Shown here: piece after piece, positions 9,109 to 42,897 of the stretch
How the letters are laid out: each line of letters begins with the position of its first letter
Position numbering within the stretch: the stretch's first letter is position 1
Virus record (IMG/VR): IMGVR_UViG_3300022824_000016
Span: 1 to 64,000 of that record
From: a virus
Taxonomy: Duplodnaviria; Caudoviricetes
DNA length: 64,000 bases
Strand: one strand, 5' to 3'
Made by a program: the position numbers and the translations under genes
The notes under the pieces: model-generated
Database searches by the model: none
What the model was told of the DNA's origin: nothing
Seen by the model: only the letters and a program-made list of their open reading frames with translations

Positions 9109-10341
9109 CTAGGCCGTGAATCCAAATGCATAATCGTTATGCCGCGGCTGGGTATTGTAAAGGTTCGTTCCGAGGCGCATGAAGAGCGCATCGATACTGA
9201 CGTTGTTCGGCATCGGTGCCCGGCGCAGACCAAAGTTCCAGCCTTTCTTATTCGTTGGCCGGATCTTGAAACTTTCTGGCTCAAGGAAGTAGAGAACTTC
9301 CGAAGGCTGAATCGTGGTACTCGAAGGCAGTCCGGAACCAGTAGGCGAAACCGAAACGTTCGCACCGTTTTTGGTAAATTGCGGAGTCGTAAAGGCCACT
9401 GTAGTCGTACTGGACCCAACACCGTCTGCCAGATTGGTATTGCCGGCAGCACCGTTCGCCGGAGCAAGCTCGATGTAGTTCTGGGCCTGAGCTGAAGGTG
9501 CCAGCGGATCGGCATAGATATCGACACCGTTAAAATTGAATCCATCCCACTTGATGTCATGCTTTGTATTGCTGACATCGCGGCGTTGCGCATCCAAAGC
9601 AATCGCAATAGCCTTGAATCCGAATACGTTGGTAATGCCCAGCGTCGGATTGCCACCAGCAACCTTGCACTGACTCCACAACTGCATCAAAGCAGCAAAA
9701 TCGATCTGACCGGTAGCGCCAGTCGAAGTGCCCAGATAAAGTGGTGTGGTATTCAGTGCTGTGCCGATATTGCCATTGCGTGCCTGACCACCATAGTTGG
9801 TGTAAATATTGCCAAAAACAGAGGGGTCGATACCGTTGTTCAACGCTTCATCCAAACCGTTGATGGTCTTGATGCGGTTGTCCTGAACGGTTGACGAAGA
9901 AGGCTGTCCATGGCGGAAAGAATCCATCTCTTGCATGGTGTTCATGGTCATTACCATGGCTTCCATGTAGAGCTGATACTCATCCACAATCCGCGACGGA
10001 CCGGAGTTGATTACACCGCCTGTACCGGAACCATCATCCATTTCCCAATCGTCCAGCGGATACCAGGTGGCATACGCTTTGGGCAGAAACTTAATGCCGG
10101 TATTGATCTGTTGGCGGGTCACGGTCACGGTCTGGCCGGGATTCACTGCGGCACCCTGTGTACGTCCATACAGGATGCCTTCCATCATGCCAGCGCCGCC
10201 CAGGAATTCATCCCACACGCCAGCCCTGCGCAGCTTGGCCTGGAACGGAGTGTCCACGAAAAGGTTATTAAAAACTACATTTTTTCGGACACTTTCCAGG
10301 TTCGAGGCGTCGATTTCATTGTACAATGGGTCGGTAGGCAT
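9109..10341 (-). CDS. Major capsid protein
   Basis: 410 aa; follows a scaffold-like gene; N-terminal pattern NNLF..TPF.A.L....F.GG...EGILYG resembles phage capsid families. Confidence 0.8.
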   Translation of the reverse strand: MPTDPLYNEIDASNLESVRKNVVFNNLFVDTPFQAKLRRAGVWDEFLGGAGMMEGILYGRTQGAAVNPGQTVTVTRQQINTGIKFLPKAYATWYPLDDWEMDDGSGTGGVINSGPSRIVDEYQLYMEAMVMTMNTMQEMDSFRHGQPSSSTVQDNRIKTINGLDEALNNGIDPSVFGNIYTNYGGQARNGNIGTALNTTPLYLGTSTGATGQIDFAALMQLWSQCKVAGGNPTLGITNVFGFKAIAIALDAQRRDVSNTKHDIKWDGFNFNGVDIYADPLAPSAQAQNYIELAPANGAAGNTNLADGVGSSTTTVAFTTPQFTKNGANVSVSPTGSGLPSSTTIQPSEVLYFLEPESFKIRPTNKKGWNFGLRRAPMPNNVSIDALFMRLGTNLYNTQPRHNDYAFGFTA

Positions 10342-10362: not shown

Positions 10363-10893
10363 TTAGGACGCTTTCCGTGTTGCTACAACCGTCAGTAACT
10401 GCTTCTTTTTCTGGTAATACTCAGAACGTTGTGCGCGGCGTTTCTTACCCGTTGCGCTGATTCGACGGTCGCGTTCTTCTTCGTAAAACGAAAGCAATTT
10501 GCTTTGAAGAACGCTGACAGGAATTCCAATTGGAGAGGCACTGCGCAAAAATTCAAGTGCATTAGTACCGTCAAGTTGTTCTCTGCGGCGAACAGTCAAA
10601 AACTCATAGATCAAGCACATGAAAATGCGCGCTCTGTCACCGCAGATATCCCAGGTGTGAACGCCTATGCCTGCGCCGTTATCGCGCACGCTTCCACCAA
10701 ACCAATCGCGAAGGCGATACAGCAGTTCTGGATCTTTTTGCGTAACCGAAGCCATGAAGCCGCGCTTTGTGTGTCCACATAACCGACATGTCCCTTCGCC
10801 CTCGTAGATCCCGGCAGACCAAGCGACATCTATGGCGCTGGGAATCTTTGTAGCTTCAAGTTCCGGTCGATTTGGGCGTGTCCAGTTGTTCAT
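10363..10893 (-). CDS. Single-motif LAGLIDADG homing endonuclease
   Basis: WSAGIYEGEG motif, then SVTQKDPELLY.L...FGG.V; probable start MNNW at 10893. Confidence 0.8.
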   Translation of the reverse strand: MNNWTRPNRPELEATKIPSAIDVAWSAGIYEGEGTCRLCGHTKRGFMASVTQKDPELLYRLRDWFGGSVRDNGAGIGVHTWDICGDRARIFMCLIYEFLTVRRREQLDGTNALEFLRSASPIGIPVSVLQSKLLSFYEEERDRRISATGKKRRAQRSEYYQKKKQLLTVVATRKAS

Positions 10894-10918
10894 TGCGCTT
10901 CCATGTTTTGGCTTCAAA

Positions 10919-10998
10919 CAGAAATGGCTCAAGCCATTTCTGACTTGAGCCATTGCTGATTCCCTGAAGGGGGGCATGTGTCTCGATGATTCAGTTAC
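10919..10998 (-). promoter_or_regulatory. Late-operon leader element, copy 1 (candidate attenuator)
   Basis: Minus strand TCGAGACACATGCCCCCCTTCAGGGAATCAGC-AATGGCTCAAG-T-CAGAAATGGC TTGA GCCATTTCTG-TTTG; near-identical to the copies at 12559 and 18976. Confidence 0.75.
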
Positions 10999-11013
10999 GT
11001 CAACTGCGCAGAG

Positions 11014-12033
11014 TTATGCTGCTACCTGCTGCTCTGCAATCTCATGTTTAATTGCCTGTGATGTTGCTTGTCGACGCTGTTGTTCGTTCAAAGCCAGCGG
11101 GTCAGGCCGGTCACCGGATTTCACTGCTCGTGAAACTTCTGTAAAACGAGAAGGCTGTGCAATCTTTACGTCGGGATTGCTACCAATCTTCTCCGCCCAT
11201 TTGCGATCAGTTTCTTCAATCGCTTTTTGTCGGGCTTTTTCGGCTTCTGCCAGCTTTGCTTCGTAAGGTGCAGTCGCTTCAGCTGCGACTTTGGCATCAT
11301 GTTCCTGCTGTACCTTCTGCCGCACGGCTGCTTCCTTGCCAGAAAAATCGTATTTTCGCGCTACATAATCACGGAATGGCAAACGGGCATTCGTTGCTTC
11401 TTCTGAAAGCTTGTCGAAAGAATCCGGCAAGAACTGACCACCGCTCAATCTCTGATATTCCTGCATTGCCCAGCCAATATTACTAATTCCATTTCCTAAC
11501 CGCTGATCAATGGCTTCCATCGTGAAAGTTGGACTTCCTGGTGTTCCACCAGGAGCATTGGCAACGTAGCGTCCCTGCGAATCACGCGGTTGAGTTGATT
11601 GATCTGTTGAACTGAATAAATTCTGTGTCTGGTAAGCTGGTGCTTCTGCCGGAATAAATCCTGCTGCGCGGCCTGCCTCATTCTGTGCTTTCAGAAATGC
11701 CAACTGCGCTTCCAGATTGGCCTTTTCGTTGCCCCAGTTATTGAGTGCCGGCGCAATGCTTTCGTCATAAAACTGTCGATTTGATCGCTGTGCAACTTCT
11801 GCTGCTTCCTGAGCTTGTGTTGCTGCCTGACGTTCCTGTTCGGCTTTTGCTGCCGCTTCTGCTGCTGCCTGCCGTTCTTGTTCGGCTTTTTGTGAAGCCT
11901 GCAGTGCGGTCTGCCGTTCCTGTTCAGCAGCACTCAAAACTCCGGTGAAAGCAGTGATTGCTTTTGCGTCCAGCGCCGCAATCTGCTCATCATTCAAACC
12001 GGATTGTTTTAATATTTCCTGGACTGTCGGCAT
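11014..12033 (-). CDS. Capsid scaffolding protein
   Basis: 339 aa, Ala/Gln/Glu-rich coiled coil, immediately upstream of the capsid gene. Confidence 0.7.
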   Translation of the reverse strand: MPTVQEILKQSGLNDEQIAALDAKAITAFTGVLSAAEQERQTALQASQKAEQERQAAAEAAAKAEQERQAATQAQEAAEVAQRSNRQFYDESIAPALNNWGNEKANLEAQLAFLKAQNEAGRAAGFIPAEAPAYQTQNLFSSTDQSTQPRDSQGRYVANAPGGTPGSPTFTMEAIDQRLGNGISNIGWAMQEYQRLSGGQFLPDSFDKLSEEATNARLPFRDYVARKYDFSGKEAAVRQKVQQEHDAKVAAEATAPYEAKLAEAEKARQKAIEETDRKWAEKIGSNPDVKIAQPSRFTEVSRAVKSGDRPDPLALNEQQRRQATSQAIKHEIAEQQVAA

Positions 12034-12057
12034 TTCTCGTGTTCTCCCGGAACATTG

Positions 12058-12366
12058 TTAATATTGCGGTTGCTGGCCAACTGGTGTCGGTTGGGGAGGG
12101 CTGACCAAAGCCGTCTGCATTTCCTGAATTCCCTGTGAAACCTTTTCAGCTCCTGCCGCAAGACGTGGATCGGCAGATGCCATTTGCTTTGCGGTTTGAT
12201 ACCAGCGCGCAAGTAGCATTTGCAGCGGATTAGCGGGAGCCTGCGAAGGCGGGGTCTGCGGAGGAGCACCCTGATCGGGAGCACCCTGCGGCGGAGCACC
12301 TGCTCCTTGTGGAGGAGCGGCACCCTGACCTTGCTGATCGGGCATTGCTTGAGGCATCGTTGCCAT
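12058..12366 (-). CDS. Pro/Gln-rich small protein
   Basis: GGAG RBS; MATMPQAMPDQQGQG... Confidence 0.65.
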   Translation of the reverse strand: MATMPQAMPDQQGQGAAPPQGAGAPPQGAPDQGAPPQTPPSQAPANPLQMLLARWYQTAKQMASADPRLAAGAEKVSQGIQEMQTALVSPPQPTPVGQQPQY

Positions 12367-12423
12367 TGAATCTCCAATATGCAATGCCCCCGCAAACAGA
12401 GATCTGTCTGCGGGGGCTACTAA

Positions 12424-12534
12424 CTACGCCTTGATGGCGCTCCTCTTGCCACGACCCTTGCGTCCGCCCTTGCGGCCACGGCCCTTTTTCAAATGGCTGG
12501 CTTTGATTGCGCTGACATGCTTGCGTCTTGCCAT
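12424..12534 (-). CDS. 36-aa protamine-like basic peptide (not in the ORF track)
   Basis: MARRKHVSAIKASHLKKGRGRKGGRKGRGKRSAIKA*; AAGGAG RBS. Confidence 0.75.
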   Translation of the reverse strand: MARRKHVSAIKASHLKKGRGRKGGRKGRGKRSAIKA

Positions 12535-12558
12535 GATGTTTTCTCCTTGGGCTGAAAT

Positions 12559-12644
12559 AGAAATGGCTCAAGAGCCATTTCTGGTCCTGAGCCATTGCTG
12601 ATTCCCCAAGGAGGGGGGGCATGTCGCTCGATTGATTCTGTTAC
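12559..12644 (-). promoter_or_regulatory. Late-operon leader element, copy 2
   Basis: Variant copy keeping both alternative helices; TTGACA (12674-12669, minus) upstream. Confidence 0.75.
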
Positions 12645-12682
12645 ACCAATATTCCGAATTGTTTTTTGTGTCAAGACCAAAA

Positions 12683-12922
12683 TTACAAAATTTTTTCACC
12701 AATCCCGAGTAAAGCACGAATTTCGTTTGCCTGGGATTCTGAAATCTTTGTTCGCTGTTCGACGTTTACGCCCTGCACATTGCCTTGGTTATATTGGATA
12801 ACCATTTTTCCGTTTGTCTTGGTAGCTTTCAGCACTTCATCCACCTGCGACACGTTTGTGGGCAATTCAATGCTGACTTCGGTCAGGTAGTAGTCTTTTT
12901 GAACTTTGATTTCAACAGCCAT
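12683..12922 (-). CDS. Hypothetical protein
   Basis: 79-aa ORF after the portal with a GGAG RBS. Confidence 0.6.
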   Translation of the reverse strand: MAVEIKVQKDYYLTEVSIELPTNVSQVDEVLKATKTNGKMVIQYNQGNVQGVNVEQRTKISESQANEIRALLGIGEKIL

Positions 12923-12932
12923 CGATTTCTCC

Positions 12933-15011
12933 TTACGATTCCGAAACTACCGTCCGTGGATTTCCGCCCTGAGCGCCCTTTTGTCTGAGTTTCGGGCTTT
13001 TGCTACCACTTGGTGGTCGACCACCTCCGCCACCTTTGCTGCCACCTCCACCGCCGCCTTTGCCACCCTTACCACCTTCACCGCCCTGCGGAGGTTCCAT
13101 TCCCAGTTGTTTCATCAACTGTGCGGCTTGTGCAGCCGCAATAATTTTCAATTTTTGCGTTTCAAGTTCTTCATTGAACCATTTTTCGTGTTCGGTGTTG
13201 CCGGGCACCTCTCCATAGTTCTGCACATCCAGCTTCTTCATAACTGTGGACCACGAAATTGGCGCATTGCCACGTTTTAACTGCAGATATTTCAATTGCT
13301 CCTGCATTTGCGTAATGCGCAGCAAGGTGCTGGGCACAGAAACCAGTCGAATCTGTCGCGCAAACCAGCGTGCACGTGTTAGCTGGTCATATTGCGATGG
13401 CGTATTCGGGAATATTCCATTCACCATCTCATCTGGTAAATGGCTGGGAACTAATTCGTCGGGATTAAAATCAAAAACTTCCCGTGCGATATTGTCTGGT
13501 CCGACATATTCCATGATCCGGCTTACATTGAACCATTGCAGAATCAGGAATTTCATGCGGTAGCCAATCGCTTTGTTCGCCTTTTCGATACGCGCTGCAA
13601 TTCCCTTTGCAATTGGACCGATTGACTCCAGCATTTTGTCAGCCGTATCATTAGCAATGTTGGCCTTCATATTTTGTAGATTACCCAGATCCGTAAGACC
13701 CAGCTGAGACTGCTTGCATTCCTTCAAATACTTCAAAAAGGTAAAGTGTTCATTACTTACGCGAACTTCTTCCGGCAACACAGATTGCAAAACGTCTCTT
13801 GGTTTGCCATCGAGTCCAATTCGAACATCTTCTTCAAAAATGTCAAAGTGCTCAATCTTCGGTCCACCGGTTTCCGTGTGGTTATATCCCATCGGCGGAT
13901 TGAGAGTTGCGGTAATAACCTGATCGATTTTTCTTTCAATCTTGCGCGTTGTTGACTCAATAGAACCTACATCGCCTACCAAAGACCTGCCTAAAGGTTC
14001 CCATGCCCAATCATCCACTACATATTGAATGATGGGAATCTTGCCATCCCAGTCAAACGCCGGACCATCATACATGGGTCTGTCGATACCTGGTGAAGTA
14101 ATTAACAAACGCAGGTTGGGATATACGCGGCAATCTTCCACCATTGCCGGACGCATAAAAGGCAGGCCGTTGCGCATCCCGCCAAAAATTGGCTGTCCAA
14201 TAAATGGGACCTTATAGAACCACGTTGTCCCCACATCTCCCATCGGCAATTCATAACCGGTGTTATTGATGCGTAGATCTCTGACAAACGTATAGCGAAT
14301 TTCCGTATAAAGATTTCCAAAGCTGCGGCCCTGATCTCCATACCGATAGCGTTCGGCATAATCTATCCGTTTGGCCTGCACTTGAGTCTTGTAGCTGCGT
14401 GGTCCAACTGTTTGCAATTCACCCTGAAAAAGCGGAAAGCGTCCATGCGCTTCGGCAATTGGCATATAGTCGTAAATTGTGACGGCGTAAGCATCCTGCA
14501 CATCATTGCTTCTAGGAATCTGAACAGGAACTACATCCAAAAGTCCCAATGCTTCAAATACCATTTTGCGTTCGCCGTAGCCATATTCATCAGCCCGCAC
14601 TTTTGGCCACAAATAGCCAATGCCCATTACGCTGGCATACTGCAAAACTTTGAGAATCTGAAAAGGAAAATCCGATTCCAAATAAACGCACTTTGAAACC
14701 TTGGTTAGCATTTCCGCAAATTGTTTATAAGCTGGTATGTCCGATCCATAGCCAGCAATTTCCCGAACTTCTGCCAGCGTCTCACAGAATTTTCGAATGT
14801 CATATTTCAGTTCGTTGGTAACCAGTGTGGAGCGAGACTTATCCCTGAAAACAGCGTCAAAAATACGCATGTTCTGGCCCAACTCTTTGTAACAAAGTTG
14901 TCCTTCAAGGAATCCTTCGCCTTCCTGAATCTGTTCTTCAACCCAACCGACACGTGTACTGCCGGAACTTTCGAATTTTGGTACTTGCCATTGGGTTGTT
15001 TCAGGGTCCAT
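12933..15011 (-). CDS. Portal protein
   Basis: 692 aa between terminase and scaffold; Gly/Lys-rich tail; assignment mainly from size and synteny. Confidence 0.75.
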   Translation of the reverse strand: MDPETTQWQVPKFESSGSTRVGWVEEQIQEGEGFLEGQLCYKELGQNMRIFDAVFRDKSRSTLVTNELKYDIRKFCETLAEVREIAGYGSDIPAYKQFAEMLTKVSKCVYLESDFPFQILKVLQYASVMGIGYLWPKVRADEYGYGERKMVFEALGLLDVVPVQIPRSNDVQDAYAVTIYDYMPIAEAHGRFPLFQGELQTVGPRSYKTQVQAKRIDYAERYRYGDQGRSFGNLYTEIRYTFVRDLRINNTGYELPMGDVGTTWFYKVPFIGQPIFGGMRNGLPFMRPAMVEDCRVYPNLRLLITSPGIDRPMYDGPAFDWDGKIPIIQYVVDDWAWEPLGRSLVGDVGSIESTTRKIERKIDQVITATLNPPMGYNHTETGGPKIEHFDIFEEDVRIGLDGKPRDVLQSVLPEEVRVSNEHFTFLKYLKECKQSQLGLTDLGNLQNMKANIANDTADKMLESIGPIAKGIAARIEKANKAIGYRMKFLILQWFNVSRIMEYVGPDNIAREVFDFNPDELVPSHLPDEMVNGIFPNTPSQYDQLTRARWFARQIRLVSVPSTLLRITQMQEQLKYLQLKRGNAPISWSTVMKKLDVQNYGEVPGNTEHEKWFNEELETQKLKIIAAAQAAQLMKQLGMEPPQGGEGGKGGKGGGGGGSKGGGGGRPPSGSKSPKLRQKGAQGGNPRTVVSES

Positions 15012-15142
15012 GCGCGCATAGTAGGCAAATATAAGTTATTCGTCTACACCATTTTTATTAGCGCAGACTTTCCATGTTACATATACAAAATATAAGTTTA
15101 TCTATGTCGAGTTAGGTCCATAAATATACAAATTGAACTATA

Positions 15143-15532
15143 TTAATGCCCTTTTTCATATCCTTCACTATGAAGATAACTAATTCGGTTCATTTTGGTT
15201 TTGTCCGGTCGCTGATCATAGATTTCCAAATGTCGACGCAAGAATTCTCGATTTAGATTGTTTCTGGCATTGGCCATTTGATGAAGGATGTGATTGCGCA
15301 GATTAGAGCGGATCGGACCTTCAATCATTTCTCGCTGCTCATCTTCCATCTGAATTTTAATTGCTTCCTGTTTTCGCATGCGTTCTGACCACACTTCCGC
15401 ATCATGCGCAGAGTTACAAACAATCTTCTCAAATCCATAAGGAGCTGGATAGCGCTCAGGAAGTCCCATACGGATCTCTCCGGTTGTTCCGTCATACCAG
15501 TAAACTATTTTTGTGCTTAGTTGAGAATTCAA
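15143..15532 (-). CDS. Hypothetical protein
   Basis: Start overlaps the terminase stop (ATGA coupling). Confidence 0.6.
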   Translation of the reverse strand: MNSQLSTKIVYWYDGTTGEIRMGLPERYPAPYGFEKIVCNSAHDAEVWSERMRKQEAIKIQMEDEQREMIEGPIRSNLRNHILHQMANARNNLNREFLRRHLEIYDQRPDKTKMNRISYLHSEGYEKGH

Positions 15533-18500
15533 TTCATTCCTCCAACAGAAACCTTATTCACAGAGCATGATTTCAAAACCAACGGCGGCATTTTTTCCTG
15601 TGGCAAAGCGTACCGCTTTTGCGCTCGGTCCGCAAGAATATCAAAATCATGTGCAGTAAAAAACGATTGTGCGGCGGCGCGTACACGATCATCATGCTGC
15701 CCGCTTCGATGTTCCATCTTGGATATTCTTCCAGCCGCCGCATGGCGTTCCAGAGTTTTCAATTCCTCAATCAACCATTTTGATGACGGTCGATACCAGC
15801 CACCATTAACAGCTTCCGTAAAGCGTGTCATCAGAATAGGCACACTCCATACGTTAGAAAACCATCCTTGTTTTTTTCCTGAATCGTCTTTGATCTTTTT
15901 GCTGTCATAACGCCGTGGAACATGGTGCCAATGGAATCCCATCAGCTTGAGTTGATGCTGGCATGTATCACCAGGACGTCCAATTTGTTCCACGCAAAAT
16001 TTTACGCCGCGTGAATCCTGTGTATTCTCTCCATACCAGGCTGCCATGCAAGCCGCGAATCCCACGATCTGCGCAGAGTTGATCCGGTTCGATGTCAGTT
16101 CGGCAACCTGATAATCGAATTCATCGCCAAATCGATTCCGTGTCATTGATACGCAGGTTCTGTCTTCATCTTCTTTGCCAAGTCCATCAGCCGTATCGAT
16201 TCCGCAACTGTAGCTATAACCGGCTTTGGGTTCTTCGTACACCAGAAACTTGTCAAAGGTCTCCGTCTCAATTTCTTCGTTAACCGGCAAAAGTGGAATC
16301 AGCACCCACTTGTATTGCTGACCGCGATCTGAATTCCAGAGAATCCGTATACGGTCTTTATCATAATCAATGATCGATTCGTCCGGCTCAAAACCATCAT
16401 CGATGGAATCGCCGGTAATCGCATAAGCTTGAACCGGTTTCTTTCTTTCTTTTGTATCGCCTTCCACTTCATAAACATGGTTCTCAATTTCCTGAATTGT
16501 TTCAAGATCAAAAACGCTGTCGTGGACTCCCGTTAAAGCTTCAAAGTCATCGGCTGCCATCTGAGCCAACCAGATTTTTTGGGTGTGGTTCTTGCAAGCC
16601 TGAAGATAATTGAACTCCCAAAACCATTGCTGTTCAATCGGCATCCTCCAGTCTGCACCCACTACATTAGCCAGATAGGGAGTATTGCGAATGTAGAGTT
16701 CGCAACGCTGCACGTGCTTCCGCGTTACCTCCTGCCGCTTTCTCATAAAATCGGCAGGCACAGGAAATTTACGCACCCAGTCTGGCTCCGGATACAGATC
16801 CGGAACCATAGCCCAGGGAATAAATACCGGGCAAAGCCGGGACTGTCCTTTCGGCCAATCAGCTTTTGCCGACCGCCATGTATTTGCCAACCAGCCAGTA
16901 TTGCCTCCTCCAGTTCCTTCAAAAACCATGAACAGGTTGCGCGACGAGTGGGTGGCACGCAGCAGACCTTCCTCAATTACCTTTTCCGGTTTGGGAATAT
17001 CAGCGAGTTCCGACACATGAATACAGTTATGGACAGAACACTGCAATGTGGTGAAAGAATGCGCGGCATCATTTATTTCCACGTCGTAGAACGATTCGCT
17101 AAATCCTTCATCAACTTTTTCGATCTTCACATCAATTGCTGAACCATCTTCGTTGTAATGCCAGTGACGAGCTTTTTCGTGGGAGGGAATATGTTCAAAA
17201 TTGAGGGCCATTCGATAGCGATAGCCACACATCCCCACCATTACAAGTTTCCAGGTTTCGCGCTTTTTACCACCCCATGGTGATTGCATAGCTGCCTGGT
17301 GGTAGATCGATGCCCATCCGAAACCCAGTGAAGCCACCAAATCGCGCATCTGAAGCGTGATGGCTTCGCAGATACAGGGAGCAATGACGTGATTGGAGTT
17401 TTTTTCGCAGTGGCCATCGCCATCGAGATAGCCCTTCAAGAGATAAAGGCAAAAATCGCGGCCTGCTGTCCAAATCCAATCTGGTACATGCTTGTCGTAC
17501 TTACGACCAAAGTTTTCTGCCAACCAACGGGCCAACCATGCACAGGAAATGCAAACCTGTGAACCGTTTTCACCGTGATTCTTTGTGTGTATGTATTGGT
17601 CTTCGCCTAGCACTGCTTTGATTGCTGTTTCAGTTCGTATAGCCTCACGACGATGCACGGTGAAAGTTACTTCCGACAAATATGGCTTTTTGTTGAGTTT
17701 TCCTATTCCGCTTTCATGGCATGATCCTTCAGCAAGATAAAGCCCGGCAAGGTAGGCAACTACCGGCGAATACGTCAGTTCAAATTCAATCGCATGCGCT
17801 GCATCGATCTTTCCGCGCAGCATTTTTTGTAATGGTTCCCCATCGTTTTCAGCGCGGATTTCGCGGACTGGATAACGTACAAAATCGCCTACGCCTAAAT
17901 CTTCTGCTTCGCACCAACCATCAGGAGTCCAGATGCGATGGTCGAGCGTTGATTCAAGCGGCTGATAGCATCCCCATAGCTTGAGTATCCGTGTCGGTTC
18001 ACCATGACGCGAAGTTTTGAAGGAACACTTTACTGCTGCCAATCGACCATCATGGGTCAAAACCCGGTCGCCAAGCGCAAGATCCTCAATGGCTTTTACA
18101 CCACCATTAGCAACGCGTACAGGTGTACCCGGTACCAGGCAGGTCGGTGTCCAACCTTGTGCAATGCCGGTGGCCTGCATACCAGACTGAATCGAAAGGA
18201 CCGAACCATTGTCGTAGGCACCCTTCGGCAAGCGCCGCGGCACCAACCACCAGGGACAACGATTATAAGCCGTGTCCAAAATGCGACCGATCAATTCCGA
18301 CTTATCGGATTGCACGGAAGCCATCACGGCCTGAGTATGCGGAACAAAGAGTAAACGATGAAGGAATTTAAGCGCAGTTTTTGTTGTGACGCCAACCTGT
18401 CGCGCCTTGAGAATCATCAGTTCGATGGAGACCTGTTTTTCGTCAAAGCCAGCAATAACTCCATCAAATATTTTCTGAGATAATCGATTTTGGAATTTAA

Positions 18501-18795
18501 AGATCTGGCCTTTTTCGTCGCAGACCCAGGCATAGCGACTTTCAAAATAGCCGGAGTCCAGACCGCAAAGTGCTTGCTCGTTCTCGATCCAGCGCCAGAT
18601 TTCCTTTTGACGTTTCTGCGTGATGGGACGTTGCAACGTGACATAAGAGGACCGGGAGTTGCTCTCGATCTTAACCAGAGAATCAATGTACTGCTTAAAT
18701 TCCTGTACCTGTTCCAGTGAATGATAAACAGGCATCCAGCCTTCGAGGGCTGCGAATTCGTCCAGATTGCGTAATACAATCCGTTCGCTATACAT
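15529..18795 (-). CDS. terL: Terminase large subunit containing an intein
   Basis: Walker A-like ILKARQVGVTT, Walker B CIHVSE, EGTG coupling motif, nuclease GIDTADG and HDDRV. Confidence 0.9.
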   Translation of the reverse strand: MYSERIVLRNLDEFAALEGWMPVYHSLEQVQEFKQYIDSLVKIESNSRSSYVTLQRPITQKRQKEIWRWIENEQALCGLDSGYFESRYAWVCDEKGQIFKFQNRLSQKIFDGVIAGFDEKQVSIELMILKARQVGVTTKTALKFLHRLLFVPHTQAVMASVQSDKSELIGRILDTAYNRCPWWLVPRRLPKGAYDNGSVLSIQSGMQATGIAQGWTPTCLVPGTPVRVANGGVKAIEDLALGDRVLTHDGRLAAVKCSFKTSRHGEPTRILKLWGCYQPLESTLDHRIWTPDGWCEAEDLGVGDFVRYPVREIRAENDGEPLQKMLRGKIDAAHAIEFELTYSPVVAYLAGLYLAEGSCHESGIGKLNKKPYLSEVTFTVHRREAIRTETAIKAVLGEDQYIHTKNHGENGSQVCISCAWLARWLAENFGRKYDKHVPDWIWTAGRDFCLYLLKGYLDGDGHCEKNSNHVIAPCICEAITLQMRDLVASLGFGWASIYHQAAMQSPWGGKKRETWKLVMVGMCGYRYRMALNFEHIPSHEKARHWHYNEDGSAIDVKIEKVDEGFSESFYDVEINDAAHSFTTLQCSVHNCIHVSELADIPKPEKVIEEGLLRATHSSRNLFMVFEGTGGGNTGWLANTWRSAKADWPKGQSRLCPVFIPWAMVPDLYPEPDWVRKFPVPADFMRKRQEVTRKHVQRCELYIRNTPYLANVVGADWRMPIEQQWFWEFNYLQACKNHTQKIWLAQMAADDFEALTGVHDSVFDLETIQEIENHVYEVEGDTKERKKPVQAYAITGDSIDDGFEPDESIIDYDKDRIRILWNSDRGQQYKWVLIPLLPVNEEIETETFDKFLVYEEPKAGYSYSCGIDTADGLGKEDEDRTCVSMTRNRFGDEFDYQVAELTSNRINSAQIVGFAACMAAWYGENTQDSRGVKFCVEQIGRPGDTCQHQLKLMGFHWHHVPRRYDSKKIKDDSGKKQGWFSNVWSVPILMTRFTEAVNGGWYRPSSKWLIEELKTLERHAAAGRISKMEHRSGQHDDRVRAAAQSFFTAHDFDILADRAQKRYALPQEKMPPLVLKSCSVNKVSVGGMN
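17026..18141 (-). mobile_element. 372-aa intein with LAGLIDADG endonuclease in terL
   Basis: T|CLVPGTPVRV ... STLDHRIW ... YLAGLYLAEG ... LLKGYLDGDG ... FYDVEI ... SVHN|C. Confidence 0.92.
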
Positions 18796-18823
18796 TGATC
18801 TCCGGTTCGAAGAACGTCAGAAT

Positions 18824-18946
18824 CTATGCCTTCACGGCAGAAGTCTTTGCGGCCCGCTTGCCGAGCGTTTTGATTCGTGGCGTCATCTTCTTCAATTGAA
18901 CGAGTTTGGTCGAGTAGATCTGTTTGCCCTTTTTGGTTCTTGCCAT
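18824..18946 (-). CDS. 40-aa basic peptide (not in the ORF track)
   Basis: MARTKKGKQIYSTKLVQLKKMTPRIKTLGKRAAKTSAVKA*; GGGAGG RBS. Confidence 0.75.
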   Translation of the reverse strand: MARTKKGKQIYSTKLVQLKKMTPRIKTLGKRAAKTSAVKA

Positions 18947-18975
18947 GGCTTTCCTCCCTGGAACTGACTGCAAAA

Positions 18976-19055
18976 CAGAAATGGCCCAAGCCATTTCTGA
19001 CTTGAGCCATTGCTGATTCCCTGAAGGGGGGCATGTGTCTCGACTGTTGCTTTAC
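18976..19055 (-). promoter_or_regulatory. Late-operon leader element, copy 3
   Basis: Differs from copy 1 by one base in the hairpin loop (TTGG) across the core; TTGACG upstream on the minus strand. Confidence 0.75.
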
Positions 19056-19105
19056 ATCTATACCCAATCTTTTTTTGCGTCAAGTCTTAGTTATAAAGCA
19101 ACAAA

Positions 19106-19942
19106 TCATTCGCAGAGATTGTAGACCGACATGCAGGAACGAACCGGGAACAGTGGAATCTGATCCTCATCGACACTTTCTATGTAGCGAAAAACATCTG
19201 CGCAAGTTGGAATGGGAACCGTACGGCCGTCTTTGGTGATAACGGATTTTGAACAGAAGCGCGATGGAATCTTGTCGGACCGAAACCATGTTCGATAGTT
19301 TTCTGGATCGTTCGCAGCCTCGTTGGCATGGTTCTCCAAGTCAATCAAACGTGTTTTCAGCTCGGGAAAGAAGCTGATTGCACGTTTCAATTCTCCCAAA
19401 CCGGTCATGATGCAAGGCCAACAGCCAACTCTCGTTGCTCCCATAAGATAAAGTGGATTTGGGCGGATATTGTACTTTTCCATCATAGCGAAACATTGTT
19501 CTGCAGACCAGTGCAGCAAAGGCCGCTTGATCCAGTAGCCACCTGCATCATTGAGCCATTCCGACTCGCTCAACTTAGATCTGGAATAGGATTCATCGGC
19601 GCGAATGCCCTGATAACTGGTCACCTCGTCATCCAGAGATTTAAAATAACGATGCAGCGGAAAAACTTTCAATTCCTGAGTGCAAAAACGCGAATGCACA
19701 CCGGGAACCATTTTTCGGTCAACGACTAATTGTACAAAGCCATCGGAATACTTCTCGCTCTTAAGTGTGACAAGAGCGCCATCCAAAACCGTCTGATTGA
19801 TCTCTTCAACGTAGGCATAGGTAAGTGGATGTTCCCAACCCGTATCACAAAACACAGCCGTAAATTCCGACAGATTTTCCTTTGCCCAAAGAATCAGAGC
19901 CGTCGAATCTTTACCTCCGCTAAAGCAGACAATGTTTTTCAT
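19106..19942 (-). CDS. PAPS reductase family protein
   Basis: FSGGKDS, DTGWEHP, RFCTQELK, GIRADES..R, RVGCWPC motifs. Confidence 0.9.
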   Translation of the reverse strand: MKNIVCFSGGKDSTALILWAKENLSEFTAVFCDTGWEHPLTYAYVEEINQTVLDGALVTLKSEKYSDGFVQLVVDRKMVPGVHSRFCTQELKVFPLHRYFKSLDDEVTSYQGIRADESYSRSKLSESEWLNDAGGYWIKRPLLHWSAEQCFAMMEKYNIRPNPLYLMGATRVGCWPCIMTGLGELKRAISFFPELKTRLIDLENHANEAANDPENYRTWFRSDKIPSRFCSKSVITKDGRTVPIPTCADVFRYIESVDEDQIPLFPVRSCMSVYNLCE

Positions 19943-28400: not shown

Positions 28401-30473
28401 AAGCTTGTAACACGGCTGCTTTAACTGCCGCATCCGCGAGTTTTTACTAACCCTTCGCCCGCCCGCGGGCATAGAGTACGCGGGCAAGGATTGAATCATG
28501 CTAAACACTGAAACCAACACGCACGCCATGGAAACGCGGATTTTGAAAGCAGTAAATGGAAAGCTGGTCAATCCGGCGCGCCGTTACGTGGAATTTCGTA
28601 CCTTTTTTGAGCATGGCCAATGGTGGATTGAACATTTGCCAAGCGGCGCGCAGTGGTCTGTCTGCGATGCGTCCGGCCCGAGCTGCCCGGATGGATTCGA
28701 CTTCGAGCAAGTGACGCAGGGCGACGAAGAATAGCCATCTTAGTCCAGAATCCGGACTTTGATAGGTGACCAACGTTTTTCCAACTATCCGGAAATTCCG
28801 GAGAATTGAGAACTTCATGAAATTCACACTTGAAATTGAATTGGGCGACGACGCAATGAGAACTCCGTGGGACGTGGCAGTCGCGCTTTCGTCCGCTGTG
28901 ATGGCACTGCAAGACAACAGCCGCAACCTCGCAGACGGCGAGAATGGAATACTGCGCGACTTCTACGGAAACACCGTGGGCGGCTGGGGAGTAAAGTGTG
29001 ATCTTTGCGCCGCATCCAACGCTGAAAAACAAAAAAGTAAACAGTCTGCTTAGTCCAACTTTCTTTGATAGGTGACCAATTTTTTTAACCGGGCCGACAA
29101 TTCGGCAGAACTGAGAACACCATGAAATTTACGCTCGAAATTGAATTGGGCAATGACGCCATGCAAAACGGAACCGATGTGATCAAGGCAATTCAGGAAA
29201 GTCTGAAGGGTGAAGAAAGTCTGCCTTTGGACGCGGGTACTGCGGGACGACTTTGGGACGAAAACGGCAACCTTGCAGGCAGCTGGAAAGTAATAGAAGA
29301 TGCGCCAACGCTGCCTGTATCTGTCGTGGCTTCTGTACTCCCGGCTGAAACACCGCATCCTTTTGATGACCACGACACCATGGGATTCTGCTCTGTTTGT
29401 GGCCGGAGAAAGTATGATCCGGACGCGAATCACATCGAATAACTGGGCAACTGGTAAGGATTCCTTACCAGTTCAATCGCAACCAGCAACAGCCGCATAT
29501 CGGCAGAATCGAGTATTGATCATGGCACAGGAACCGAAACAAATTATTCCTATCCCCGCATTGAACATTGAAGAAGGCGCGGCACAGCTAACACTTACCA
29601 CGGAAAAGTATTTTAACGGTCAGATTGTTTCCGCCGCACACATCTATTTTGCGAAAAATGGCATGATCACCTTTGAACTAGCTGGCGACTTCAGGAAGGT
29701 GCTTTTGCGCACCCGTGAACGCGCCACACAAAAGGCACTCGACACACAGCACGCGAACACCTTTACCCCCGAAGTCATCGAAGCGCTAAAAGCTGAAGCA
29801 CTCGCTTTCTACGCTGAAAAGCGGAAAAGTAAACAGTCTGCTTAATCTATCACTCTCTTTGATAGGTGACCAAATTTTTAGAACCCAAAGTACATACAGG
29901 CCATGGAGGGCCATCCCAATGAATCCAATTCAGTCCCATCCCGGCAGCTATTGGCATAGCAATGACGCAGCTGATATCTGGCTCAACACTTTCGCAGCAG
30001 AAAAGCCCGAGACCATCAAAGTATTCGATTCCGGTGCATCGGAAAGCTCTTCCGGTCTGGTAACAATTCCGCTTGTATCACTACGATTCATTAGTGCGGG
30101 GATCTTCGGAGAAGGCCGTCCCTGCAGTTTCAACTCAAAATCAAAATGGACAGGTGACTCTCACCGCTATGGCGTCTACTTCTTTGAAGAAGATCCAAAC
30201 AAACAGCACCCGGTGATCCTTGAGACGCATGGCGGCGGAACACAAGGCGTTATGTTTCCATCCTATACCACAGATTTATGGAGCGTGATTGCAGTCGGAC
30301 TTTTGCCTGAGCAGCTCTGGGATATGTGTCACAACATCATGCAGTATGGCGCCAATATGCAAAGAGCTACAGAAAAACGCATTCATTCCGCCTTTGTTGA
30401 AGACCGACTGATTAAGCGGCGGCGTCATGGAAATGTCTATGTAGAAACCAAACCAGTCGAGCCGCTCCTTTGA
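25485..30473 (+). CDS. Array of about 13 small early hypothetical genes, including a 49-aa two-TM peptide at 26720-26869
   Basis: Co-oriented short ORFs (25785-26255, 26299-26697, 26948-27406, 27458-27712, 27713-27982, 28047-28424, 28498-28734, 28818-29053, 29122-29442, 29522-29845, 29919-30473). Confidence 0.6.
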
Positions 30474-32520
30474 TAGAGGACCAAATTTTTGTCCCCTAAC
30501 CAAAAAACTCAAACGCAATTCTAACCGGCGCACTGCGCCAGAAAGCAGCGTCAACATCATGGCTACTCTTGCCACTTCCTTCGATGAAACCGCAGTGCCC
30601 TCTATCTCCAAAACTGCCCAGCGCTTCCGCACCTGGGCTGACGCCCTGCAGCCAAAGATCGACCACGCAGGACGACCAATGACGCTGAATTCCACGCCCA
30701 AGCGGAATAAGGAATACCAGTCTCGGCTGCATGATTGCCGCAATCTGGAGCGCACACAGCGGGCATTGCTCACTCTCGCTGACGCCCACGAAAACGGAAC
30801 GATTCTTCCCGAGCTGGCCGGATTTACAAAGAAAAATGAAATTGAACGGATGGTACATAAGGGAATCGACTGCGGCAAAGGCGGTTATTATTCTGTGATT
30901 GAATCAGACGACTATTCCGACACTTCCGAATCGGCACGGCTCCTGCAGTCTATGATTGACGGCAATTCCACCGAGCGCATCGAACGCGAACGACTGCGCA
31001 AAATCAGCGAACTCGAAGCCGAAATCCAACTATCCAATATTCCTGGATACTTCCCCACGCCTGCGCCCGTAATTGAAATCATGTTGCGCCGTGCACGGTT
31101 GAGCCGACTTAGCAAGGGAATGCGCATTCTGGAACCGGAAGCAGGCAGCGGACATATTGCCGATGCGATCCACGCCGCTTACCCTGAGTTGGAATTGGAA
31201 GTCATCGAGCCGGTTTTGCGGTTGCGCAAGATCCTGCAACTCAAGGGTTACAAGTTGGTCGGAGACGATTTTCTTCAGGTTTCTACCGCCGAACTCGGAA
31301 CCTATAACCGGATCATCATGAATCCGCCCTTTGAGCGGCAGCAAGATCTGGACCACATCCGCAAGGCATACTCTTTGCTCGCGCCTAGCGGCGCTTTGAT
31401 TTCCGTTCTGAGCCCCAGCTTTGAATTCCGCAACGACCGCAAGAGCACGGAGTTTCGCGCATGGTTGCAATCGCTCAATGCCCAATGGGAAGAACTTCCG
31501 GATGGTTCTTTCAAGGCCAGCGGTACCGGCGTTTCCACGCGGTTGCTAGTGATTGAGCGCTACTAGAAAGATCTTTTGATAGAGCAACCACAAATTCAAA
31601 GACAGCGGGAAAAAGGAATAAGCCCATGAGCTATGCGCAGATGATGAAGTGGCACCGCACCCACCGCAAGGGAACTCGTCAGCCGGTTCTGATGTCGACC
31701 GGCTCCGGATTCTGGCCCGCTCACAGTTGGCTGGAAAACACTTTTGCGCCTTACGTCGAACAGTGCAAAGCGGCAGACATTGAACCGATGGAATGCCAAG
31801 CCTATTACAACGCCACACTGAGCGGAGGAATCGGCGATCCACGGTTCGCTGATGATTGACAATCATTCACACTTTGGTGTTTTCCTGCTATTGACGCCGA
31901 GGTGCGAACAAGCGCATTCTTTCAAGAGATCTATTTGATAGAGGGTCAATGGATCTTAAACCATTTTGAAAAACTGGCCCGGCGTTCCGGGCACACCGAG
32001 GCAACCATGAACGCAGCACAGACATACCGGCCACAGCTCCTGATTGATTTGCCGCCGATGGCTGAAAATGCGATCTGGCGCGCTATCGATCCGCGCGACC
32101 GGCACCGCATTGATTGCGACCACATTGGCACGTGCGGAGAACAAGCTATTTGGGCAACTCAGCACGGCAGACTGTACGTCTGCAACTATCACCGCTTTGT
32201 CTACGAGGTTCAGCGCGCCGTCGAAGCGCTGAAAGTCCAGGATCCGGACTGCGATCAGGATCTCGAACCGGATGATTCGGTACTGGCATAAGAGAAATCA
32301 GGATGGCCAACGAACGCACAAAACTCCGGCACAAGCCGCTTCCGGCGCTAACGCTGCGCTGTGAATGGTGCAAACGACTTTTTGCGTGGAAGCCAGGCTG
32401 TACCACGCAAGCCATGTTTTTTGTACGCCGCACCTGCTCCAGGTATTGCCGCAGCAGATTGCGCAGCTGGGAACTGGCACATCCATCATCGGCTACAATT
32501 CTTCTTTGATAGAAGACCAG
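28758..32520 (+). repeat. Dispersed motif TTTGATAG-(G/A)(T/G)-GACCAA at gene boundaries, 7 copies
   Basis: Copies at 28758, 29064, 29858, 30469, 31575, 31934 and 32505 (the last three degenerate); a weaker copy at 22883. Confidence 0.75.
30559..31566 (+). CDS. N6-adenine DNA methyltransferase with N-terminal extension
   Basis: YFPTP, ILEPEAGSG (motif I), IIMNPPF (motif IV). Confidence 0.85.
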   Translation: MATLATSFDETAVPSISKTAQRFRTWADALQPKIDHAGRPMTLNSTPKRNKEYQSRLHDCRNLERTQRALLTLADAHENGTILPELAGFTKKNEIERMVHKGIDCGKGGYYSVIESDDYSDTSESARLLQSMIDGNSTERIERERLRKISELEAEIQLSNIPGYFPTPAPVIEIMLRRARLSRLSKGMRILEPEAGSGHIADAIHAAYPELELEVIEPVLRLRKILQLKGYKLVGDDFLQVSTAELGTYNRIIMNPPFERQQDLDHIRKAYSLLAPSGALISVLSPSFEFRNDRKSTEFRAWLQSLNAQWEELPDGSFKASGTGVSTRLLVIERY

Positions 32521-41779: not shown

Positions 41780-41964
41780 ACCTGTTTCCACGAACCAGAA
41801 GTGACAGACAAAAGGCGGGAGGTTCGCGGAACGCGGAAGTTTCCTGTTTTCAAGGAGATAAGTATGACATACCAATTTTGTGATTATGGAAAAGATGTGG
41901 AAAAGACGAGGTTCGCGATTTCCACAGGACAAACCATTGATGCTATTATGTTTTTAGTGCCGAA
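41780..41964 (+). promoter_or_regulatory. CRISPR leader
   Basis: Between cas2 and the first repeat; contains GAACC...GAGGTTCGCG twice, a pattern common in leaders. Confidence 0.65.
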
Positions 41965-42718
41965 GGCACAATGAACATAAAGTGCATCGCACAGATGCAA
42001 CATGCCCTGATTCAGCACTTCAACGCCCACAACCTATCGGCACAATGAACATAAAGTGCATCGCACAGATGCAACAGAGAAAGCTACAGTTCGATCAACG
42101 ATGCTAGATCGGCACAATGAACATAAAGTGCATCGCACAGATGCAACTGTGAGGCTCGCTGGCTCACGGCCCTTCGTGATAGGCACAATGAACATAAAGT
42201 GCATCGCACAGATGCAACTCAGCAGCGTGCGTCTGGAGCGGCAACAATACCGGGGCACAATGAACATAAAGTGCATCGCACAGATGCAACTTATCCGCTG
42301 CTGTGCCAACAATACTACCCGACTGGGCACAATGAACATAAAGTGCATCGCACAGATGCAACGTAATCTGTCTGCTCCTGAACAGCACTATTTCGCGGCA
42401 CAATGAACATAAAGTGCATCGCACAGATGCAACCAGAACTACTGGTGAGTTCACTGCCCATTGATCTTGGCACAATGAACATAAAGTGCATCGCACAGAT
42501 GCAACCAGAACTACTGGTGAGTTCACTGCCCATTGATCTTGGCACAATGAACATAAAGTGCATCGCACAGATGCAACTGATAGCGTGCGCCGCCCTGCAT
42601 CGCAGGTCCGCGGCACAATGAACATAAAGTGCATCGCACAGATGCAACTGAATACCATTCCAACGTTGTTGCGTGATCCAAGGCACAATGAACATAAAGT
42701 GCATCGCACAGATGCAAC
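41965..42718 (+). CRISPR. CRISPR array: 11 identical 37-bp repeats GGCACAATGAACATAAAGTGCATCGCACAGATGCAAC and 10 spacers (33-37 nt)
   Basis: Repeats start at 41965, 42039, 42111, 42182, 42254, 42326, 42397, 42469, 42541, 42612 and 42682; spacers 7 and 8 identical; 3' hairpin TGCATC-GCACA-GATGCA-AC. Confidence 0.99.
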
Positions 42719-42897
42719 CCTCTGAAAAACACGGTTCCGTTGTTTGATGGGAATTTATAGAATTACCAATATATTTTCTTACAGAAAGTTCAATAGAGAA
42801 TTTTGAATTCATCAAATAAAAAAGATTTTCTCTGAATTTTTGAACATTAAAAAATCTACGTGAAAAAAATGCCATCGTGATCGCATCCATTGTCTAC

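Follow-up and report, generated by a model that had tools for sequence, protein, structure and literature searches.

A putative two-state leader RNA preceding terminase, scaffold and capsid genes in a temperate phage of soil Acidobacteriota and its relatives

The leader element and its gene context

The window analyzed here comprises the first 64,000 nucleotides (nt) of the 78.6-kb IMG/VR provirus record IMGVR_UViG_3300022824_000016, which derives from a temperate phage whose host group is soil Acidobacteriota. Its late region carries three copies of a leader RNA of about 85 nt that precedes terminase, scaffold and capsid genes, and whose alternative helices may form a switch acting on termination and translation. 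All three copies lie on the minus strand, at 10919-10998 (copy 1), 12559-12644 (copy 2) and 18976-19055 (copy 3). An initial annotation, made from the sequence alone, had placed them there, and a reading of the sequence, a 16-mer search and a covariance model all agree; the 16-mer search finds no further sense copy in the whole 78.6-kb record. A filter-free scan of the window with the covariance model returns the three sense-strand copies with scores of 99-115 bits and E-values from 1e-21 to 1e-25, the other matches being the palindromic reverse strand or noise (E > 0.2). The features first listed for the element are all present: TCGAG..CATG, a C-run/G-run hairpin, AATCAGC, AATGGCTCA(A/G)G, a 10-bp hairpin and a U-rich tail.

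In the direction of transcription, a PAPS-reductase-like gene is followed by copy 3, a 40-amino-acid (aa) basic open reading frame (ORF), the large terminase, a 129-aa ORF and a portal-sized ORF. A 79-aa ORF, copy 2, a 36-aa basic ORF, a 108-aa ORF and a scaffold-like ORF come next, and copy 1 and a homing endonuclease gene lead to the major capsid gene (Table 1). The leader had been described as heading terminase and head-gene units, and such a place before both gene groups is borne out. Copy 1, which starts 30 nt past the stop codon of the scaffold-like gene (TAA 11014-11016), is internal and has no promoter-like site; not all copies head a transcription unit.

Conservation in related phages

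An invariant 18-mer of the element is present in 39 IMG/VR loci, and 80 additional loci were reached through capsid relatives at 65-100% identity. A capsid-protein scan of genome contigs yielded a single host-linked relative, an Acidobacteriota metagenome-assembled genome. A covariance model built from 75 distinct copies gave 145 hits when searched against the collected relative loci, of which 89 distinct sense-strand copies were left once reverse-strand echoes and duplicates had been removed. The covariation model from related phages that the initial annotation had proposed thereby recovers the element as a family, with about 89 distinct copies in roughly 75 related IMG/VR contigs and the one assembled genome. 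All 89 share the orientation of the late genes.

The copies fall into classes by position. T-type copies stand ahead of a small basic ORF or immediately ahead of TerL, while S-type copies lie about 1.7 kb upstream of the capsid gene, again ahead of a small basic ORF, and occur in almost every relative, including those whose capsids are only 65% identical. Copies of the C type, between the scaffold stop and the capsid gene, are confined to close relatives, the others having a 60-nt spacer there. A fourth class occurs in some relatives about 10.9 kb downstream of the capsid start, preceding a gene for a basic protein of 85 aa (MAKL..) or different genes; its counterpart would fall outside the left edge of the window and contig.

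Strand and helices of the element

Across the family, the pairs of one helix, hairpin A, comprise 1044 Watson-Crick, 97 G.U and 2 A.C combinations, and those of a second, P0, 682 Watson-Crick, 16 G.U and 1 A.C. Because the mismatches are G.U and hardly ever A.C, an asymmetry not expected of a DNA palindrome or of an antisense RNA, the element acts as sense-strand RNA. Four helices (P0, stem 1, A and B) are backed by covariation. P0, which was proposed by the RNAalifold consensus and had been missed initially, joins GAGnnnCAUGC (region 0) to GCAAUGGCUC, with GAG pairing to CUC and CAUGC to GCA(A)UG. It is paired in 98.7% of cells, against 32-49% in slid controls, and 0 of 500 shuffles reach the observed values. 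Three of its five core pairs (35/102, 36/100 and 37/99) show compensatory changes, with AU replaced by GC or UA, UA by GC or CG, and GC by AU; diverged lineages carry CAGAC/GUCAUG, CGCGC/GCAGCG, CGUGC/GUACCG or CUUGC/GUAGAG. Stacked above P0, stem 1 is a C-run/G-run helix with a variable loop and compensatory changes at all four pairs. The bases left unpaired at the junction of these two helices (CC, AA and a bulged A) are conserved.

Hairpin A (AAUGGCUCAAGUCA-GAAA-UGGCUUGAGCCAUU) is the minimum free energy (MFE) fold of all three window copies. Compensatory changes occur at 9 of its 14 pairs, observed values that 0 of 500 shuffles reach, and an independent MAFFT alignment (A2) agrees with it. 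An 11-bp alternative pairing reported earlier exists, as part of this 14-15-bp hairpin. The differences between the window copies keep both helices, as had been claimed: U-A becomes U.G at 18986, A-U becomes G.U at 12587, and the +1/+2 indels of copy 2 relative to copies 1 and 3 compensate each other within hairpin A. Hairpin B uses the same 3′ strand as A and, as seen in copy 3, joins the A loop to the beginning of the U-tract. Its support comes from the covariation of the A loop with the tail after A (GAAA/UUUC, GCAA/UUGC, GUAA/UUAC) and from pair 120/150 (AU in 64 copies, CG in 14, UG in 5), positions that helix A does not constrain. The RNAalifold consensus fold consists of P0, stem 1 and B. 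P0 and A compete for region 1, and B and A compete for region 3, giving mutually exclusive helices on one terminator strand, both with compensatory changes, as in attenuators generally.

Pairing with the Shine-Dalgarno region

A further interaction absent from the initial description appears in equilibrium folds that include the start of the next gene. The pyrimidine strand of stem 1 pairs with the Shine-Dalgarno (SD) sequence, and the GGGAA strand pairs with a C-rich run immediately upstream of it. In all three leader types the SD is predicted to be paired with a probability mostly near 1.0 (T and S 0.96-1.0, copy 3 included; copy 2 about 1.0), with two of five SD bases at only 0.77 and 0.22 in a C-type relative. 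Cognate stem-1/SD duplexes reach -14.1 kcal/mol against -12.1 kcal/mol for permuted ones, a value attained in 0 of 5000 permutations, and the cognate excess persists within gene classes (p 0.016-0.037). Compensatory cases occur in L066 and L070, where UUGGGG/CCCAA becomes UUGGAG/CUCCAA, and in L068, where CUUGGG/CCCAAG becomes CUUCGG/CCGAAG. The predicted MFE fold also pairs the CAUG of region 0 with the CAUG of the start codon, a 4-bp contact that comes from the fold alone. Because the P0 fold keeps stem 1 closed and the A fold opens it, one switch would set both termination and ribosome access.

Energetics and the probable terminator

Hairpin A is most likely the terminator and P0 with stem 1 the antiterminator, as judged from sequence and predicted folds. 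A is read as the terminator because it is universal, stable and adjoins the U-rich tract, which reads UCUGUUUU / UCUAUUUC. A 14-15-bp stem-loop followed by such a tract has the form of an intrinsic terminator, and a consensus scan flags hairpin A of copies 1 and 3 as terminator-like. With a single exception, the 42 copies listed give it an energy between -17 and -25 kcal/mol, and the group means are -20.5 and -20.8 kcal/mol. The 9 nt downstream hold on average 5.4 U after A against 4.1 after B, and A ends just five bases upstream of B. Canonical terminator tails (e.g., GAGCC-UUUUUUGUUUUU) occur in L047, L102 and L079, that of L047 forming a textbook terminator, GGCUCAAGCC..GGCUUGAGCC-UUUUUUGUUUUU. 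About ten distinct copies, including both copies of L082 and L083 as well as L081, L085, L086 and L088, are without a B-like hairpin (B energy 0 to -3.6 kcal/mol) and retain P0, stem 1, A and the tail. Since these copies dispense with B and keep A, a terminating A opposed by P0 is the only arrangement that would fit all members. The roles assigned to the two hairpins in the initial annotation are therefore probably reversed, while its description of an attenuator, as a cis-acting sense leader with mutually exclusive helices beside a U-tract, stands.

In a nascent transcript ending at region 1 the MFE fold is P0 with stem 1, and A wins after regions 2 and 3 have emerged. The A fold of full leaders is favored by 6-13 kcal/mol. 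In copy 2, for example, the MFE fold (-48.1 kcal/mol) pairs CUCCUUGGG with CCCAAGGAG, and enforcing P0 raises the energy to -34.9 kcal/mol. The summed energy of P0, stem 1 and B is about -22.7 kcal/mol, compared with -20.5 kcal/mol for A alone, a figure in which the contribution of stem 1 is not counted.

Promoter-like motif, small basic ORFs and candidate triggers

TTGAC(A/G) had been noted before copies 2 and 3, and it belongs to a motif, CTTGAC(A/G)-N17-TAnnnn, that T- and S-type copies of relatives keep at a constant spacing of about 50 nt before CAUGC, with a conserved ATTCGG just ahead of the -10 region; C-type copies do not have it. The last -10 position is never T, for which reason a simple sigma-70 scan does not list the site of copy 3, and this suggests that the sites may depend on an activator or other factor instead of being plain sigma-70 promoters.

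Arg/Lys-rich ORFs of 33-40 aa stand behind T- and S-type leaders even in distant relatives. They share the features MAK/R.., ..SHLKKG.. and ..LGKRA.KT.. and end in [AS][IV]K[AG], and they could encode N-like RNA binders or virion DNA-binding peptides. As a trigger these peptides are a lead only, because C-type copies and some distant T-type copies have no such ORF behind them. Pfam scans of 40 window ORFs and PHROGs scans of 20 among these gave no Q, N, CAT/PRD, ANTAR, RinA or sigma-like match.

Coordinates and other features of the window

Table 1. Parts of the three leader copies, neighboring genes and fourth-class copies (positions in the window unless a contig handle is given)
Feature	Position	Strand	Description
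Copy 3 (T-type) promoter-like site	19055..19083	-	TTGACG 19078-19083, A-rich 17-nt spacer, TAGATG 19055-19060
Copy 3 proposed antiterminator module	19001..19041	-	RNAalifold consensus, pair counts
Copy 3 region 0	19039-19041; 19031-19035	-	GAG; CAUGC
Copy 3 stem-loop 1	19019-19030	-	then A-rich linker
Copy 3 region 1	19001-19013	-	GCAAUGGCUCAAG
Copy 3 hairpin A, proposed terminator	18980..19011	-	14 bp, GAAA loop; MFE, covariation
Copy 3 hairpin B	18977..18998	-	AGAAAUGGCU / GGCCAUUUCU
Copy 3 U-rich tail	18971..18979	-	UCUGUUUUG
Copy 3 downstream partner Y	18944..18964	-	GUUCC-AG-GGAGG including SD, plus start of 40-aa basic ORF (ATG 18944-18946)
40-aa Arg/Lys-rich ORF	18824-18946	-	directly behind copy 3
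Copy 2 (S-type) promoter-like site	12646..12674	-	TTGACA 12669-12674, 17-nt spacer, TATTGG 12646-12651
Copy 2 proposed antiterminator module	12586..12629	-	GAG 12627-12629, CAUGC 12619-12623, region 1 12586-12598
Copy 2 stem-loop 1	12604-12618	-	anti-SD CUCCUUGGG at 12605-12613
Copy 2 hairpin A	12562..12596	-	15 bp, one bulged C, GAAA loop
Copy 2 hairpin B	12559..12582	-	10 bp, loop CUUG
Copy 2 tail and downstream	12532..12561	-	U-rich tail 12554-12561, SD partner CCCAAGGAG 12543-12551, ATG 12532-12534 of 36-aa basic ORF
36-aa Arg/Lys-rich ORF	12424-12534	-	directly behind copy 2
Copy 1 (C-type, internal) proposed antiterminator module	10944..10984	-	GAG 10982-10984, CAUGC 10974-10978
Copy 1 stem-loop 1	10962-10973	-	
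Copy 1 region 1	10944-10956	-	
Copy 1 hairpin A	10923..10954	-	14 bp, GAAA loop
Copy 1 hairpin B and U-rich tail	10914..10941	-	hairpin B 10920-10941; tail UCUGUUUGA
PAPS-reductase-like gene	19106-19942	-	upstream of copy 3
Large terminase, 1088 aa	15529-18795	-	carries Hint/LAGLIDADG intein
129-aa ORF		-	between large terminase and portal-sized ORF
Portal-sized ORF, 692 aa	12933-15011	-	
Scaffold-like ORF, 339 aa	11014-12033	-	followed by copy 1
LAGLIDADG-like homing endonuclease	10363-10893	-	between copy 1 and capsid gene
Major capsid protein	9109-10341	-	
Fourth-class copies in relatives	L046:20924-21041; L077:21071-21196; L055:20040-20165; L063:19868-19989; L045:14004-14146		about 10.9 kb downstream of capsid start

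Several features of the surroundings may be recorded here. The terminase intein, with Hint and LAGLIDADG domains, spans roughly residues 217-560. In place of the free-standing endonuclease after copy 1, relatives have a different endonuclease (starting MIVCKDKPGLDATK..) or none, and the site just behind the leader hairpin looks like a recurrent insertion spot. The provirus also contains an 11-repeat CRISPR array with 37-nt repeats (window 41947-42753). At positions 1-915, a long minus-strand ORF at the end of the virion region contains 3-4 tandem copies of a 267-nt repeat (75-99% identical), and a 28-nt motif (..TTTGATAGGTGACCAA..TTTT) occurs four times in the early region (28752-30490), beside duplicated gene starts.

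Proposed mechanism and alternatives

The reading that we favor, with a probability of roughly 0.55, is a two-state cis-acting leader switch in which A terminates and P0 with stem 1 antiterminates. In the OFF state, the thermodynamic ground state, region 1 (GCAAUGGCUCAAG) would pair with region 3 (CUUGAGCCAUU) to form the 14-15 bp of hairpin A, which directly before the U-rich tract would act as an intrinsic terminator. In transcripts that read through, both strands of stem-loop 1 would bind the SD region of the next gene, so that translation would be blocked too. In the ON state, the 5′ GAGnnnCAUGC would capture region 1, thereby stacking P0 under stem-loop 1 and depriving the terminator of its 5′ arm. 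Hairpin B would then arise from the pairing of the duplicated segment AGAAAUGGCU with region 3 and the first five U-tract bases. By pairing AGAAA with the UUUCU that opens the U-tract, B would lock the read-through fold and absorb part of the tract; it would also nearly balance the energies of the two states and keep stem-loop 1 closed, leaving the ribosome site free. Because P0 with stem 1 folds first yet is weaker than A, we infer a trans-acting factor. It would be made before late expression and may be a phage protein, possibly the Arg/Lys-rich peptide encoded behind the leaders, or a small ligand. Each regulated unit would need its own copy, since an antiterminator of this kind acts solely on its own terminator, and such local action would account for three to four copies in a genome and for a promoter-less one between scaffold and capsid.

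Several points weigh against this switch. U residues follow B as well (GUUU or AUUU, three of the first four nt), and it could itself terminate, a possibility that keeps the reversed polarity alive and is the main uncertainty, and the bases of A and B are both A-U rich, so that sequence alone does not rank the two as terminators. The alignment A3 was fitted to a model containing A, which biases the counts toward that hairpin. The sequence of P0 is largely invariant, its covariation coming from a limited number of diverged lineages, and copy L099 has two P0 mismatches; the C-type copy of L067 is without a U-tract. Some of the SD complementarity is trivial for a strand rich in C and U, and the p values obtained within gene classes are modest. 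As to a factor, no known antiterminator or RNA-binding domain was found by Pfam in 40 window ORFs or by PHROGs in a subset of 20, and for four ORFs immediately upstream of the late region searches against PDB sequences were empty or insignificant.

The opposite polarity, proposed in the initial annotation, makes B the terminator, A the antiterminator and P0 an anti-antiterminator, in a trp-like scheme where 0:1 with 2:3 terminates and 1:3 reads through. It draws on the covariation of B, on the GUUU or AUUU behind it, on the consensus fold, and on the early formation of P0 during transcription, which under this polarity would make termination the kinetic default. The members that keep A and the U-tract without B, the U-richer tail of A ending only five bases before B, and a read-through fold that would hide the SD, turning transcription on and translation off, make it unlikely. 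No regulated switch at all is likewise improbable. A would in that case be a constitutive partial terminator, an mRNA-end hairpin or a processing hairpin, with the other helices as folding intermediates. Such a hairpin might set the ratios of terminase, scaffold and capsid messages, protect 3′ or 5′ ends, or be cut by RNase III within A and the stem-1/SD duplex. The stability of A beside the U residues and the internal copy between two structural genes suit such a role, as does the irregular duplex of about 30 bp that A, its extensions and the stem-1/SD helix make up together; long irregular duplexes of this sort resemble the RNase III sites in the lambda N and T7 leaders. A plain terminator, however, needs no conserved 5′ segment, and that of P0 is constrained evidently only by its complementarity to the 5′ arm of the terminator. 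Nor would a plain terminator or processing site require the loop-tail covariation of B, and the near-balanced fold energies look like those of a selected switch.

The T- and S-type copies, with promoter-like motifs, terminator-like ends and an anti-SD sequence in stem-loop 1, might instead be small-RNA genes whose RNAs of about 80 nt act in trans on SD sites through the C/U-rich stem-loop 1, comparable to StxS, the short PR′-terminated RNA of Stx phages (PMC7547250). The SD of the next gene, however, begins 10-40 nt past the hairpin, leaving no space for a second promoter, so that the late genes need read-through. The C-type copy has no promoter and the SD partner covaries with its cognate leader in cis. 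A small-RNA role is thus very unlikely as the primary function, although it could coexist with the favored switch as a by-product. Still less credible is control by a leader peptide, in which ribosomes on the AUG-CCC-CCC (Met-Pro-Pro) frame would select the helices. The AUG of region 0 is present in 72 of the 89 distinct copies, followed by a run of proline codons, and the frame is open in all three window copies, where it survives the indels as noted initially. Among relatives it is not conserved: the triplet is replaced in 17 of 89 copies, in 11 of them by a non-start (AGA, AGG, GCG, TCG, ACG or ATA), and P0 holds the compensating substitutions. A spacer of 13-42 nt leads to region 1, placing 49, 21 and 19 copies in the three frames, the ORF runs from 3 codons (L102 and L079) to more than 100 in the window, and no convincing SD lies upstream. 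Leader-peptide control, put forward with the attenuator, was rejected on these grounds. Operators in DNA are the least credible option: the AATGGCT half-sites (two direct, one inverted) would bind a late regulator or a packaging protein, and the 8-mer, three times per element, does change in concert in diverged copies (e.g., AAAGGCT in L102). The 97 G.U against 2 A.C mismatches on the sense strand speak against such an operator or palindrome. Covariation at the apex of A is independent of the 8-mer, pairing in P0 is kept through a bulge and through changes unrelated to it, and orientation always follows transcription.

Within the favored switch, the P0/stem-1 domain may be the sensor, either as a very small new riboswitch aptamer or as the target of the 33-40-aa Arg/Lys-rich peptides, a proposal that we consider rather unlikely. 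An aptamer would mean that the phage gates its virion genes on a host or phage metabolite; a peptide target would amount to a minimal N-like peptide/RNA late switch with positive feedback, acting locally on transcription and translation at once. The timing of virion-gene expression is largely obscure in temperate phages outside a few model systems, and for phages of Acidobacteriota, a dominant and rarely cultured soil phylum, no description of it is known to us or emerged from literature searches. The covariance model can be used to annotate late operons in soil viromes, while the compensatory pairs in P0, A and B allow clear mutational tests. The leader may also offer a handle on a new antiterminator factor or ligand, and a second hairpin that absorbs the U-tract and balances the folds may suit engineered switches.

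Comparison with known systems

No riboswitch family had been recognized in the element, in agreement with a search of the whole window against Rfam 15 at gathering thresholds (GA), which returned only a tRNA. In permissive scans of copies 3 and 2 the best matches were SdsR_RyeB (19.1 bits, GA 38) and whalefall-1 (21.2 bits, GA 37, opposite strand). A hammerhead-like CUGA..GAAA was compared by eye on both strands and rejected as a ribozyme, the core being a misfit and Rfam giving no match. Literature searches found no description of this element. A 2023 catalog lists 8495 unnamed structured-RNA candidates from IMG/VR (the DNAVirus_X set) and gives no mechanism (PMC10690425). They likewise come from intergenic regions and rest on covariation, and many have Rho-independent terminators or lie upstream of genes (PMC10690425). 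The catalog, compared by description only, might contain this element.

With attenuators of the trp type the element shares a succession of four or five segments that can pair in alternative ways (0:1, 1:3, 2:3) beside a U-tract. The present element differs in having no conserved leader ORF and in that its competing hairpins share the 3′ strand rather than the 5′ strand of the terminator. ON-type transcriptional riboswitches (e.g., the pbuE adenine riboswitch) are similar in the competition between the terminator's 5′ arm and the helix that closes a 5′ domain, in the conserved unpaired bases at the junction and in platforms that couple transcription and translation. Here, by contrast, a simple interrupted hairpin whose loop varies makes up the 5′ domain, with no known aptamer or ligand, and to our knowledge no known riboswitch controls phage terminase, scaffold or capsid genes.

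The closest logic is that of the RAT (BglG/SacY/LicT), ANTAR, HutP and GlpP leaders, in which a weak 5′ hairpin overlaps the 5′ arm of a terminator, antitermination is local and non-processive with a copy per unit, and termination is the ground state. The element departs from them in serving phage late genes, in the additional hairpin B that absorbs the U-tract, in the coupled sequestration of the SD, and in a sequence and fold that match no Rfam family. ANTAR leaders consist of two tandem short hairpins with conserved hexaloops (A1, G4), the second overlapping the terminator, unlike the single interrupted hairpin found here, whose loop varies in length and sequence and whose spacer runs to 13-42 nt. 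The Pfam scan of 40 window ORFs showed no CAT_RBD, PRD, ANTAR or HutP domain; the factor may belong to the host.

Lambda N/nut, HK022 put and lambdoid Q/qut also time the read-through of terminators in phages by an RNA element just downstream of promoters. The order of promoter, RNA element and small basic ORF echoes PL-nutL-N, and a late promoter closed by an immediate terminator echoes PR′-tR′. Lambda nut combines a linear boxA motif with a boxB hairpin bound by an arginine-rich peptide. No boxA-like motif was seen by eye in the element, although no dedicated boxA search was made, and a boxA/boxB-like consensus is not evident. These systems act processively after a single loading at each promoter and lie clear of the terminators that they suppress. 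The element, in contrast, has its own putative terminator inside and is repeated at an internal site with no promoter, and both features speak against a processive mode. In its logic it would be a local antiterminator/terminator leader, with solid support for the structure and moderate support for the mechanism, and the predicted joint control of termination and ribosome access at each late unit would set it apart from the processive Q, N and put systems.

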